DNA from: a virus | Lineage: Duplodnaviria; Heunggongvirae; Uroviricota; Caudoviricetes | IMG/VR virus record: IMGVR_UViG_2872192773_000007 | Direction: 5' to 3' (one strand) | Length of the DNA: 42,812 nucleotides | Shown here: positions 7,166-27,946 of the stretch, piece after piece | Layout of the letters: the number at the start of each line of letters is the position of its first letter | Numbering within the stretch: the first letter of the stretch is position 1 | Position numbers and translations under genes: made by a program | The notes under the pieces: generated by a model | Told to the model about the DNA's origin: nothing | The model's database searches: none | Seen by the model: the letters and a program-made list of their open reading frames with translations, nothing else

Positions 7166-7530
7166 TGATTAATCGAACCAAACTGGAGCACATTCTCGAA
7201 TATGCCAGGCAGCAGAAATGTATTGGGCAACTTTGTAAAATTCCACCAGGAGATATGGTTGAAATCGTGGAAATGGCCATGCGTAAGGCTGGCAACTCTC
7301 CGGTAACTCTGGCTGGCTGGATAAGCTGTAGTGATGCAGTTCCTGCTGAATATTGCGATGTGATTCTTCTCGATGATCTCGGGAATGTATTCCCCGGTTC
7401 CTGGGATAAGGTTTTTTGCCCCACTCGTGGCGGGAATAAGATGGCTTTTGTGGACAAAGACGGCGTTGAAGTAGAGAGCTCAACTCACTGGATGCCGCTA
7501 CCGGAACCACCGCAGGAGGTGAATCAATGA
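7165..7530 (+). CDS. DUF551-like phage protein
   Basis: C-terminal MAFVDKDGVEVESSTHWMPLPEPP resembles DUF551 prophage proteins. Confidence 0.5.
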   Translation: MINRTKLEHILEYARQQKCIGQLCKIPPGDMVEIVEMAMRKAGNSPVTLAGWISCSDAVPAEYCDVILLDDLGNVFPGSWDKVFCPTRGGNKMAFVDKDGVEVESSTHWMPLPEPPQEVNQ

Positions 7531-7610
7531 CCTGGCCTGAGGCATTCACCACGGTAGGAATTGCGATGGCGGTGGCGCTGGTGGTGTATTCGATTTGCCG
7601 TTGGGGTTAA
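7527..7610 (+). CDS. small hydrophobic protein (27 aa), translationally coupled
   Basis: ATGA overlap with upstream stop; MTWPEAFTTVGIAMAVALVVYSICRWG; followed by a terminator. Confidence 0.3.
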   Translation: MTWPEAFTTVGIAMAVALVVYSICRWG

Positions 7611-7616
7611 CAAACA

Positions 7617-7646
7617 AAAACCCCGGATTGATGGTCCGGGGTTTTT
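7617..7646 (+). terminator. rho-independent terminator
   Basis: AAACCCCGGA-loop-TCCGGGGTTTTT hairpin with T-run. Confidence 0.5.
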
Positions 7647-7984
7647 GAAGGAAACAAAACAGAAACAGCAATTGCCGTTACCTGTTGTTACCATGGCAAG
7701 TAAACGTATCTCAGGCGAGCGCATTGCGCCGTTCTGACGCAGATAAATTAGCCTGGATAGAAGGTGCTGGCAATAAAAAATAGCGTTTTCTTATCGGTAT
7801 CGGTAAGATTGCTGCGGGTGCTTGAGGCTGTCTGCCTCGGGCATGCCACTGTAAGGCAGACAGAGAAAAGCCCCAGTTAACATTACGCGTCCTGCAAGAC
7901 GCTTAACATTAATCTGAGGCCCAATCTATGTCTCACAAATGTAGGTTAGCCTCTTACGTGCCGAAAGGCAAGGAGAAGCAGGCT

Positions 7985-8140
7985 ATGAAGCAGCAAAAGG
8001 CGATGTTAATCGCCCTGATCGTCATCTGTTTAACCGTCATAGTGACGGCACTGGTAACGAGGAAAGACCTCTGCGAGGTACGAATCCGAACCGGCCAGAC
8101 GGAGGTCGCTGTCTTCACAGCTTACGAACCTGAGGAGTAA
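7985..8140 (+). CDS. hok: Hok/Gef-family type I toxin (51 aa)
   Basis: MKQQKAMLIALIVICLTVIVTALVTRKDLCEVRIRTGQTEVAVFTAYEPEE, recognised Hok-family sequence; structured leader upstream and terminator downstream. Confidence 0.8.
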   Translation: MKQQKAMLIALIVICLTVIVTALVTRKDLCEVRIRTGQTEVAVFTAYEPEE

Positions 8141-8207
8141 GAGACCAGGCGGGGGAGAAATCCCTCGCCACCTCTCATGTGTCAGGCATCCTCAACGCAC
8201 CCGCACT

Positions 8208-8232
8208 AAACCCGCTTCGGCGGGTTTTTTGT
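8208..8232 (+). terminator. rho-independent terminator after hok
   Basis: AAACCCGC-TTCG-GCGGGTTTTTTGTT. Confidence 0.5.
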
Positions 8233-8415
8233 TGCGTGCTGAATACGCAGGGTGAAAAATAACCATATATTTGATTATATACACAACAAAAAATAAAAGT
8301 CATTGTACTTGCACATTAAACAATCAAATATACGGCGTGAAATAAATATTTATCAGATTAATATTTTTGTCTCTATGTGGATATAACCGTTTGTACTTAT
8401 AAACCTGGGGGCATC

Positions 8416-8628
8416 GTGGAAAAAATAAAGAAACTATTTAGTAGCAAATACGCAGTCATACGTCGTGATGACCTGTCAGTTATAGTCGAAATGGATTACT
8501 TCCCTGAAACCCCAAAATCAATAATGTATCGTAATGGTCGAAAGGCAATTTTTTTACCGATGAGGGTAAGTGACATTATGGGAAATGATAAACTGCTGGA
8601 TGAATTGCGAGTCAGAGCATCCTGTTAG
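8416..8628 (+). CDS. hypothetical protein (about 70 aa) in AT-rich island
   Basis: GTG start after CTGGGGG RBS; no recognisable domain; IS1 inserted 2 bp past its stop codon. Confidence 0.35.
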   Translation: MEKIKKLFSSKYAVIRRDDLSVIVEMDYFPETPKSIMYRNGRKAIFLPMRVSDIMGNDKLLDELRVRASC

Positions 8629-8645
8629 TAGGTAATGACTCCAAC

Positions 8646-9149
8646 TTACTGATAGTGTTTTATGTTCAGATAATGCCCGATGACCTTGTCATGCAGCTCC
8701 ACCGATTTTGAGAACGACAGTGACTTCCGTACCAGCCTTGCCAGATGTTGTCTCAGATTCAGATTATGTCGCTCAATGCGCTGAGTGTAACGCTTGCTGA
8801 TAACGTGCAGCTTTCCCTTCAGGCGTGATTCATACAGCGGACAGCCATCCGTCATCCATACCACGACCTCAAAGGCCGACAGCAGGCTCAGAAGACGCTC
8901 CAGTGTGGCCAGAGTGCGTTCACCGAAGACGTGCGCCACAACCGTCCTCCGTATCCTGTCATACGCGTAAAACAGCCAGCGCTGACGTGATTTAGCACCG
9001 ACGTAGCCCCAATGTTCGTCCATTTCAGCGCAGACAATCACATCACTGCCCGGTTGTATGCGCGAGGTTACCGACTGCGGCCTGAGTTTTTTAAGTGACG
9101 TAAAACCGTGTTGAGGCCAACGCCCATAATGCGTGCACTGGCGCGACAT
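8646..9149 (-). CDS. insB: IS1 InsB frame (expressed as InsAB' by frameshifting)
   Basis: 167-aa ORF overlapping the insA 3' end. Confidence 0.85.
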
Positions 9150-9343
9150 CCGACGCCATTCATGGCCATATCAATGATTTTCTGGTGCGTACCGGGCTGA
9201 GAGGCGGTGTAAGTGAACTGTAGTTGCCATGTTTTACGGCAATGAGAGCAGAGATAGCGCTGATGTCCGGCAGTGCTTTTGCCGTTACGCACCACGCCTT
9301 CAGTAGCGGAGCAGGAAGGACATCTGATGGAAATGGAAGCCAC
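9068..9343 (-). CDS. insA: IS1 InsA
   Basis: 91-aa [43 protein letters not shown]. Confidence 0.85.
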
Positions 9344-9476
9344 GCAAGCACCTTAAAATCACCATCATACACTAAATCAGTAAGTTGGCAGCATTACCCT
9401 GTTAGTATTGGCATTAATTCTGGTATACTACATAACGGGCTGAACACCCATTCTACTGCGCCAGCGGAGAACTACG

Positions 9477-10076
9477 ATGGCGCATATACAACTGGTCAAA
9501 CAAACCTCTTCCGGATTACTTCTCCCGGCGACGCCGGAGAGTTGCGATTTTTTGCATCAAATCAAAATAGGTGAGTGGATACACGCAGACTTTAAGCGTG
9601 TGCGTAACTACGCATTCCACAAGCGTTTTTTCAAACTCCTGCAACTGGGATTTGATTACTGGACTCCGGTCGGTGGGGCGATCACGCCTCGCGAACGAAA
9701 ACTGGTATCAGGCTTCGTTGATTACCTGTGCGAATCAGTAGGTCGGGAACACACTCCAGCCCTGAGTGATGCCGCAGAGCAATACCTTAATACAGTTGCG
9801 ACATGCAGAACCCGGGATACGGCATTGCTAAAGTCGTTTGACGCTTTCCGCGAGTGGGTAACCATTCAGGCCGGATTTTACACCGAGCATATTTATCCTG
9901 ATGGTAGTCGTGGGCGCAGGGCAAAATCTATCGCATTTGCGAACATGGACGAAACCGAGTTTCAGCAGGTTTATAAATCTGTACTGAATGTGCTGTGGAA
10001 CTGGATCCTGTTCCGTAAATTTTCCTCTCCGGAGGAAGTCGAAAATGTGGCCGCGCAGTTACTGGAGTTTGCGTAA
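9477..10076 (+). CDS. hypothetical lambdoid nin-region protein
   Basis: 199-aa ORF with GGAG RBS; precedes YbcO-like and Q-like genes. Confidence 0.55.
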   Translation: MAHIQLVKQTSSGLLLPATPESCDFLHQIKIGEWIHADFKRVRNYAFHKRFFKLLQLGFDYWTPVGGAITPRERKLVSGFVDYLCESVGREHTPALSDAAEQYLNTVATCRTRDTALLKSFDAFREWVTIQAGFYTEHIYPDGSRGRRAKSIAFANMDETEFQQVYKSVLNVLWNWILFRKFSSPEEVENVAAQLLEFA

Positions 10077-26736: not shown

Positions 26737-27619
<883 letters not shown>

Positions 27620-27623
<4 letters not shown>

Positions 27624-27946
27624 TTTTTCCAGAGGCGGTCGAACTCCGCCTTCGCAAAATAAGCGGAAGCCTGGCGAAGGATATCGTTACTGCGGTGCAG
27701 TTCACGATTTTCACGCTCCAGCTCTTTCAGACGCTGACGTTCAGCGGTGGTGAGCCCTCCATCACCGCCCCCGGTATCCCGCTCATGCTGGCGAACCCAG
27801 ACACGCAGAGTCTCCGGCGTACAGCCAATCTTTGGGGCAATGGAACAAATTGTCGCCCATTGTGAGTCATATTCGCCCTGACTTTCCAGAACCATACGGA
27901 CTGCCCGTTGACGGACTTCGGGGGAAAAACGAGTATTTTTAGTCAT
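27620..27946 (-). CDS. IS629 OrfA
   Basis: 108-aa [26 protein letters not shown]... Confidence 0.85.

Follow-up and report, generated by a model that had tools for sequence, protein, structure and literature searches.

The window analysed here is a stretch of DNA of 42,812 nt (IMG/VR record IMGVR_UViG_2872192773_000007, assigned to the Caudoviricetes), and all positions given below refer to it. The locus is organized around a toxin gene, hok, at 7985-8140 on the plus strand. A preliminary description, made from the letters of the window alone, had assigned the encoded protein of 51 amino acids, MKQQKAMLIALIVICLTVIVTALVTRKDLCEVRIRTGQTEVAVFTAYEPEE, to the Hok/Gef family, and the assignment was confirmed by a match to the full Pfam profile HOK_GEF (PF01848; 82.9 bits against a cut-off of 22, E=1.2e-23) and by identity with hokD. 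Members of the family are toxins of about 50 aa with an N-terminal transmembrane helix and a conserved Cys; Cys15 and Cys30 were both present in the protein alignment, and Hok was found to be 92% identical to HokW. No second Hok gene was found in the window. A homologue of relB or relE was found nowhere in the window either, in agreement with the earlier statement that the toxin gene has no relBE partner.

The hok gene is preceded by the Shine-Dalgarno sequence AAGGAG (7970-7975, plus strand), which lies 9 nt before the hok ATG and overlaps the -35 box of the Sok promoter on the other strand. The in-frame upstream extension from 7928 that had been reported was also found. It corresponds to the mok reading frame (7928-8140, plus strand), a 70-aa ORF that is in frame with hok, shares its stop codon and adds 19 codons to it. 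The mok Shine-Dalgarno sequence GAGG is located at 7916-7919, 8 nt before the mok ATG, and mokW is annotated at the homologous place in phage 933W.

For comparative purposes, relatives of the locus were collected by a scan of one genome per species with the single Hok protein. The scan yielded 53 hok loci, and an alignment was built from the 38 distinct full-length mRNAs among them, whose sources are Escherichia, Kluyvera, Citrobacter, Pseudocitrobacter, Pantoea, Erwinia and Photorhabdus. The GAGG of the mok Shine-Dalgarno sequence is invariant in the 38 relatives, and is covered by the ucb element in the full-length fold described below. The 19-codon in-frame layout of mok is found in 24 of the 38, while the remaining relatives have no in-frame upstream ATG, many of them carrying a 1-nt insertion. 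It is probably the translation of mok, rather than the Mok peptide, that counts.

A UACG motif is present at the Tyr47 codon of hok (8123-8126, plus strand). This is a putative site of A-to-I editing by TadA, which would recode Tyr47 to Cys, and TACGAA (8123-8128) is invariant in 38/38 relatives. In K-12, the hokD mRNA is edited at the equivalent position at a level of 6% (PMC12214031), and editing at the equivalent site of the hokC, hokD and hokE mRNAs creates a conserved second cysteine (bioRxiv 10.1101/2025.08.07.668861; PMC12214031). A search for a tRNA-like local hairpin near the UACG site gave no more than a weak fold (-3.3 kcal/mol), and because of this weakness no structural claim is made for the editing site.

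The extent of the conserved cassette was established by megablast searches against phage genomes, in which the matches always started at about 7808 and ended at about 8207-8235. The conserved cassette is therefore about 7808-8232. The matches fall on mokW, hokW and sokW of 933W, of VT2-Sakai (Sp5) and of many other lambdoid phages. Of the span 7650-8235 originally proposed for the locus, the part from about 7808 onwards was thus retained, but the left third (7650-7807) is flanking DNA outside the conserved cassette, common only to close prophage relatives. Related sequence was detected by megablast in 4722 of 5426 complete E. coli genomes, the best full-length E. coli matches showing 98.7% identity and being annotated as hokD in RefSeq.

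A scan of the whole window at gathering thresholds gave a single Rfam match, to family RF01794, 'sok (CssrC)', at 7816-7990 (118.1 bits against a gathering threshold of 59). The match spans model positions 1-157 of 157 and lies on the plus strand, i.e. in the sense of hok. Apart from RF01794, a permissive search of 7450-8450 for other Rfam elements returned only sub-threshold, terminator-driven matches, among them one resembling isrK (30.6 bits, below the gathering threshold of 50).

The full-length hok mRNA is predicted to comprise about 417 nt on the plus strand (7816-8232), from the conserved 5' end GGGUGCUU to the T run of the terminator. The 5' starts of all 38 relatives conform to GGG[U/C]GCUU. 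Seven nucleotides before the mRNA 5' end, at 7804-7809, the sequence TAAGAT aligns with TAGAAT of 933W and with TATAAT of hokC-type loci, at equal distance from GGGTGC; TAAGAT would accordingly be placed as a putative hok -10 box, the -35 region being poor. At the other end, the terminator that had been noted after the ORF was recognized as an intrinsic terminator (8208-8232), composed of a hairpin at 8208-8227 (8-bp stem with 5 GC pairs, 4-nt loop) and a T run.

The folding energy of the 418-nt transcript was -178.4 kcal/mol, compared with -131.3 +/- 5.9 kcal/mol for shuffled sequences (z = -7.98), and none of 100 shuffles was as good. In the minimum-energy fold, the 5' end of the RNA is held by its 3' end: tac (translational activator element, GGGUGCUUGAGG, 7816-7827) pairs with fbi (fold-back inhibition element, CCUCAACGCACCC, 8190-8202), which complements it with one bulged C, to form a 12-bp helix. 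In addition, an exact 9-nt complement exists between 7813-7821 and 8197-8205. In the same fold, positions 7870-7876 (ucb region) pair with the mok Shine-Dalgarno region (7914-7920). The ucb, or anti-SD, element is AAGCCCC (7868-7874), whose partner is the mok Shine-Dalgarno sequence as long as the RNA is full-length, and tac once the 3' end has been shortened. When the last ~50 nt were removed, the RNA refolded: tac now paired with AAGCCCC, and the mok Shine-Dalgarno sequence GAGGC (7916-7920) was left with dcb (GCCUC, 7949-7953) as its sole pairing partner. The tac/fbi and ucb elements that a fold of the leader had been expected to reveal were therefore both found.

Three further hairpins and the target of the antisense RNA complete the picture. 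A metastable 5' hairpin (7816-7847) is predicted for the nascent transcript, with tac paired to the adjacent downstream sequence GCCUCGGGCA, and the first 35 nt of the mRNA fold into this tac-sequestering structure with -21.2 kcal/mol (z = -3.82). The internal hairpin of the 5' domain (7826-7863) is formed by the inverted repeat GGCTGTCTGCCT / AGGCAGACAG. The leader had previously been described as containing such a repeat around 7810-7850; the repeat is real, but sits slightly to the right of that region, at 7826-7837 / 7854-7863, within a 21-nt imperfect repeat (7817-7837 / 7854-7874). In the 3' UTR, a GC-rich hairpin at 8148-8169 emerged from both fold and conservation, and by analogy with R1 would be the 3'-end stabiliser of the processed, translatable mRNA. 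The Sok-target hairpin of the activated mRNA is predicted at 7923-7947; it carries the mok AUG in its stem and exposes the loop CUCACAA (7932-7938), with a YUNR-type CUCA. All the hok-mRNA elements defined for plasmid R1, which include tac, fbi, ucb, dcb and the metastable 5' hairpin (as summarised in PMC9841398), could be located in the window.

These structures were evaluated on the alignment of the 38 relatives. The closed structure was 85.5% paired, as opposed to 39-46% when the pairing partners were slid by 1-3 columns, and 35 of its pairs were changed on both sides. The open structure was 85.8% paired. For the two structures together, the slid controls gave 38-47%, and 30-35 pairs showed compensatory changes, including pairs of tac/fbi. 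The tac/fbi helix itself was 90.6% paired, with 4 compensatory pairs; where tac position 4 changes between U and C, fbi changes correspondingly between A and G (UA in 26 relatives, CG in 10, UG in 2, unpaired in 0). Four compensatory pairs were likewise counted in the internal hairpin of the 5' domain (columns 13-26/36-50; 87% paired) and three in the helix of the 3' UTR hairpin (97% paired). The tac/ucb helix was 99.6% paired, ucb/SD was near-invariant, and SD/dcb (columns 103-108/140-144) was essentially invariant and paired. Because tac/ucb and SD/dcb hardly vary, they are supported by conservation and not by covariation. The RNAalifold consensus, which is independent of the fold of the window sequence itself, recovered tac/fbi, ucb/SD and the 3' UTR hairpin, and also a helix that joins the start region of hok to the 3' portion of its coding sequence.

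The antisense partner is encoded on the minus strand. By transfer of coordinates from the sokW misc_RNA of phage 933W, a Sok-type RNA of ~71 nt is placed at 7866-7936, transcribed from 7936 towards 7866. In the predicted fold (-30.7 kcal/mol, z = -5.44), it consists of a single-stranded 5' tail (7936-7922) with ~14 unpaired nucleotides, one long hairpin (7921-7869) and a U-rich 3' end (7869-7862), CUUUUCUCU. The preliminary description had proposed a Sok-like antisense RNA on the opposite strand around 7930-7990. The homology with sokW bears out the antisense RNA and its strand but not its position, as 7930-7990 holds the Sok promoter and not the body of the RNA. The suggestion that the antisense might be defective found no support, since no damage is visible in the promoter, 5' tail, hairpin or U-tail.

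The Sok promoter (7943-7971, minus strand) sits inside mok and comprises the -35 box TTGCCT (7971-7966), a 17-nt spacer and the -10 box TAACCT (7948-7943), with a predicted start at about 7936 (G). Its sequence is identical to that of the sokW promoter, positions 7940-7987 of the window being identical to Sp5/933W. Takada et al. reported that the antitoxin activity of sokW is lost on mutating its -10 box (PMC8621323): with primers YO-421/422, TAGGTTAG of the plus strand is replaced by CCGGCTCG, which inactivates the sokW -10. The sokW RNA was detected in the same study by Northern blotting with probe YO-592 (PMC8621323), and this probe corresponds to 7907-7936 of the window. It should be noted that a scan for consensus promoters detected neither the hok nor the sok promoter; the latter was missed because its -10 box matches the consensus at only 3/6 positions. 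The prediction of a minus-strand promoter by this generic method was thus negative, which does not refute the antisense RNA. As the identical sokW promoter is functional (PMC8621323), the scan was not accepted as proof that promoters are absent.

Among close relatives, the most variable 15-nt segment of the mRNA is 7921-7935, which corresponds to the Sok 5' tail and target loop. Judged from the aligned sequences, this variability would fit a diversification of antisense specificity. Two other hok loci (L015 and L021) are present in the same Shigella genome, and their sequences differ at this very stretch.

Among experimentally characterized systems, the cassette is closest to hokW-mokW-sokW of 933W and Sp5, a toxin/antisense-antitoxin pair established by experiment (PMC8621323). 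From the -10 region to fbi, the two share 92-93% DNA identity; mok extends hok in frame by 19 codons in both, and both occupy the same lambdoid position, following a DUF551-type gene and a small ORF of 27 aa. They differ at the Hok C-terminus (TAYEPEE in the window against VDYESEK), in the terminator, and in that the prophage of the window is defective and IS-riddled. Moreover, the two differ by about 8 substitutions within the Sok 5' tail / target loop (7921-7939), and therefore the Sok RNA of the window and sokW RNA probably do not cross-react.

The R1 hok/sok system (parB) shows the same elements and both foldings, with tac/fbi in the closed form and tac/ucb plus SD/dcb in the open form, as well as the metastable 5' hairpin and a Sok RNA with a 5' tail (for R1, according to PMC9841398). 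In contrast, R1 is located on a plasmid, the copy of the window being chromosomal and inside a prophage, and the toxins are only ~39% identical. For HokW and Hok, an identity of 44% is given by Takada et al. (PMC8621323). With respect to the Rfam consensus, the hairpin formed by Sok terminator and target domain is ~16-20 nt longer in the window. The Escherichia loci of the hokC (gef)/mokC/sokC type have a Hok 82% identical to that of the window, with the same tac, ucb, SD and dcb sequences and an fbi that covaries with tac; unlike the locus of the window, they have a shorter Sok hairpin (18-nt alignment gap) and a genomic site outside a prophage. A hokC-type copy of K-12 (L023) also has no fbi at the expected place.

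The cassette is located in a decayed lambdoid prophage on a chromosome of the Shigella flexneri type, flanked there by nin-like genes on one side and the Q antiterminator region on the other. At 7285-8837, the window contains an exact copy of a 1,553-nt locus of Shigella flexneri SFBU1023, IS1 junction included, and the same arrangement was found in several NCBI chromosomes of 4.6-4.7 Mb. The genes of this neighbourhood are of the lambdoid nin-Q type, namely HNH, DUF551, hok, 83-aa ORF, DUF1367, YbcO and a DUF1133 Q-like gene. An IS1 element (~8631-9398) is inserted between the 83-aa ORF and the DUF1367 gene, in a spacer of 71 nt; it is the IS1 nearest to hok, ~400 nt past the hok terminator, and leaves the cassette untouched. 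One relative locus (L005) represents the uninterrupted state, without IS1. Elsewhere in the window, repeated IS reading frames are abundant. The 83-aa ORF (8377-8628) equals K-12 Rem in length and position. Homology was considered, but the ORF shows no similarity to Rem and belongs to no Pfam family. Nor is it truncated by IS1, considering that the same full ORF is present in L005, where IS1 is missing.

At the sequence level, every feature of the family was found at the locus: toxin, mok, Sok, tac/fbi, the alternative pairings and the metastable hairpin. We therefore consider it very likely (probability about 0.9) that the locus is a complete and canonical hok/mok/sok type I toxin-antitoxin cassette, of the hokD/hokW subtype. 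The cassette looks structurally intact. It is an ordinary, previously well-described element; the identification is correct. Some observations count against the main reading, namely the poor -35 region of hok and the failure of the simple consensus scan to find either promoter, the absence of post-segregational killing from the chromosomal loci hokA, hokB and hokC (see below), the heavy IS degradation of the prophage, in which a selective role may be gone, and the low editing (6%) of the K-12 hokD mRNA (PMC12214031).

A mechanism can be proposed for the cassette, which combines the sequence elements, pairings and conservation described above with dynamic steps modelled on plasmid R1 and on Sp5 hokW-sokW. 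A weak promoter would give rise to the ~417-nt hok mRNA (7816-8232), whose 5' tac would be locked by the metastable hairpin during synthesis. In the finished RNA, tac would pair with fbi at the 3' end and ucb would cover the mok Shine-Dalgarno sequence, with the result that the RNA would neither be translated nor bind Sok. Slow trimming of the 3' end, up to the hairpin at 8148-8169, would then remove fbi; tac would capture ucb, the mok Shine-Dalgarno sequence would switch to dcb, with which it pairs weakly, and the hairpin with the target loop (7932-7938) would form. At this stage, the short-lived Sok RNA of ~71 nt (7936->7866) would pair with the target region through its 5' tail, blocking the translation of mok and the coupled translation of hok and marking the duplex for RNase III. 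If the supply of Sok stopped, Mok and Hok would be translated, and the 51-aa Hok would depolarise the inner membrane. Editing by TadA at the Tyr47 codon (UACG) may add a second cysteine to the toxin. Slow 3' processing, RNase III cleavage, an unstable Sok and killing upon loss of Sok have been described for R1 (PMC9841398) and partly for hokW-sokW (PMC8621323). In addition, hokW-sokW is triggered at prophage induction in a RecA-dependent manner, phage release being increased about twofold (PMC8621323).

It is possible, although we regard it as unlikely on balance, that the cassette is intact in structure but physiologically silent, a never-activated relic of a dead prophage, as has been proposed for other chromosomal hok loci. 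The chromosomal hokA, hokB and hokC produced no post-segregational killing in earlier work and were proposed to be inactive (as relayed in bioRxiv 10.1101/2025.08.07.668861 and PMC12214031); the host prophage is riddled with IS elements, and the hok promoter looks weak. On the other hand, all the regulatory elements are intact and conserved, as opposed to the visible lesions of the K-12 hok loci, and hokW-sokW, which is nearly identical, is active in the prophage to which it belongs (PMC8621323). Moreover, a sense transcript of ~340 nt of the same RNA family (CssrC), which may come from the copy of the window, was observed by Northern blotting in S. flexneri 301 (PMC3071730).

The second alternative is that the plus-strand element is a free-standing, trans-acting sRNA and not part of a toxin mRNA. 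The RF01794 match is indeed typed 'Gene; antitoxin' and lies on the plus strand, the corresponding Rfam family is presented as a sok antitoxin, and CssrC was reported as an sRNA in Shigella (PMC3071730). However, the ribosome sites and start codons of mok and hok are all on the matched strand, which runs into an intact Hok ORF, the size of ~340 nt in the Northern blot fits the hok mRNA and not the Sok RNA (PMC3071730), and the real antisense is on the opposite strand. This explanation is consequently very improbable.

The last alternative requires a comparison with hokD (relF) of the cryptic prophage Qin of K-12. The hok coding sequence of the window is 100% identical to K-12 hokD at the nucleotide level, and 3' UTR, fbi and terminator are nearly identical. 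The homology breaks off at about 7971, immediately before the hok Shine-Dalgarno sequence, where K-12 has the end of relE. In K-12, tac, ucb, the mok start and the Sok gene are missing and relBE is found instead, while the window has the full leader and no relBE. By definition, the K-12 gene is the third in the relBEF operon and has neither its own leader nor its own mok or sok; this definition does not describe the locus of the window. The absence of the canonical components from K-12 hokD has been ascribed to rearrangement (PMC12214031). An orphan toxin gene that has lost leader, mok and sok, as in K-12, could be suspected from the near-identity of coding sequence and 3' UTR and from RefSeq, which labels close matches 'hokD' only, but it is the least probable explanation of all, being refuted by the sequence comparison, in which the full 155-nt leader of the window, with tac, ucb, mok Shine-Dalgarno sequence and AUG, Sok promoter and Sok RNA, lies beyond the point where the K-12 homology ends. 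By comparison of the two sequences, the locus of the window is the untruncated form of the locus that is truncated in K-12 as hokD/relF.

If the locus is taken as a complete and canonical hok/mok/sok cassette, a more specific role can be imagined for it. Even though its prophage is crippled by IS elements, the cassette may remain active in Shigella flexneri as an addiction or abortive-infection module, which either maintains the remnant of the prophage or kills the cell under phage or SOS stress; TadA may gate its toxicity at the invariant Tyr47 UACG, and the diverged Sok stretch may insulate it from the two other hok copies of the genome. This proposal is speculative, and we consider it rather improbable.

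The value of the locus is mainly one of annotation. The placement of the Sok gene has been corrected, and the Rfam family named 'sok' turns out to mark the leader of the hok mRNA, on the sense strand. From the biological point of view, the cassette is one further copy of an element present in most E. coli genomes, and it raises no new question. It presents the K-12 hokD/relF gene as it looks before relBE displaced its regulatory half. If active, it would be a potential addiction or lysis-timing module within a Shigella prophage remnant.

It should be noted that the Rfam family RF01794, labelled 'sok antitoxin (CssrC)', matches positions 7816-7990 on the plus strand, which is the hok-sense strand, and that the match reaches the hok start codon. 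In S. flexneri 301, the CssrC band in Northern blots is about 340 nt long (PMC3071730), which is the size of a hok mRNA, as against about 70 nt for Sok. Because of the strand and extent of the match and of the size of this band, RF01794 seems to describe the hok leader, and annotation derived from it places 'sok' on the wrong strand and with the wrong size. CssrB, another Shigella chromosomal sRNA, gives a full-length Rfam match at 40000-40182 (plus strand, 151.6 bits). Its distance from the hok leader is about 32 kb here, as against about 18 kb between cssrC and cssrB in strain 301 (PMC3071730); either insertions separate the strains, or the reported cssrC is a different hok copy.

An isrK-like Rfam match at 8149-8230 (plus strand) is below threshold (30.6 bits against a gathering score of 50, E = 1.5e-4); it spans the hairpin of the hok 3' UTR and the terminator, and is probably due merely to the common shape of two hairpins plus a terminator. 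True isrK copies are located at 10950-11026 and 35503-35579, each in a module with a C4 antisense RNA, the first at 10937-11138 on the plus strand, where a c4-a1b1 target match is also found, and the second at 35391-35579 on the minus strand. The presence of two such modules, oppositely oriented and about 24 kb apart, implies either that the prophage DNA has two regions of the immunity/anti-Q type or that an inversion has taken place. Between and around them lie many repeated IS frames (a 272-aa ORF five times, 301-aa and 279-aa ORFs twice each, and the 167-aa ORF of IS1 three times), as well as an ALIL frameshift pseudoknot (27549-27665). Four tRNA genes, namely CAT 'Met', Arg-TCT, Thr-TGT and Gly-TCC, are clustered at 13223-13533 (plus strand), downstream of the Q-like region, a position in which tRNA clusters are common in lambdoid prophages.

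Downstream of hok, an IS1 copy (about 8631-9398; InsA and InsB ORFs on the minus strand, at 9068-9343 and 8646-9149) occupies the short spacer between a conserved 83-aa ORF (8377-8628), for which neither a Pfam family nor a relationship to K-12 Rem was found, and the DUF1367 gene (9477-10076). The insertion is absent from a related contig (L005). Upstream of hok there is a hydrophobic 27-aa frame, MTWPEAFTTVGIAMAVALVVYSICRWG (7527-7610, plus strand), whose start codon shares bases with the DUF551 stop codon (ATGA) and which is followed by a strong bidirectional terminator (7615-7647). It is conserved at the same site, with 81-89% amino-acid identity, in phage 933W (L001, 1384-1461) and E. coli AVS0790 (L002, 5928-6008), neither of which has it annotated; its product may be a genuine small membrane protein.

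Very short contigs, 275-2995 bp in length, also carry near-identical hokD-type fragments (L025, L030 and L063). They come from assemblies that bear the names Acinetobacter idrijaensis, Xanthomonas pisi and a 'Candidatus Scatousia' MAG, which were most likely contaminated with E. coli DNA.

In 24 of the 38 aligned hok mRNAs, mok (7928-7984 in the window) extends hok in frame by 19 codons; the others have no in-frame upstream ATG, frequently with a 1-nt insertion (GGTCAAGG). The sequence of the Mok peptide is evidently not conserved. In the same alignment, the most variable 15-nt stretch (mean column variability 0.229) is 7921-7935, covering the Sok 5' tail and the target loop, in cassettes that are otherwise 88-95% identical. 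Two other hok loci of the same Shigella genome (L015 and L021) also differ in sequence at the tail and loop. This pattern of divergence suggests that the paralogous Sok RNAs are insulated from each other.
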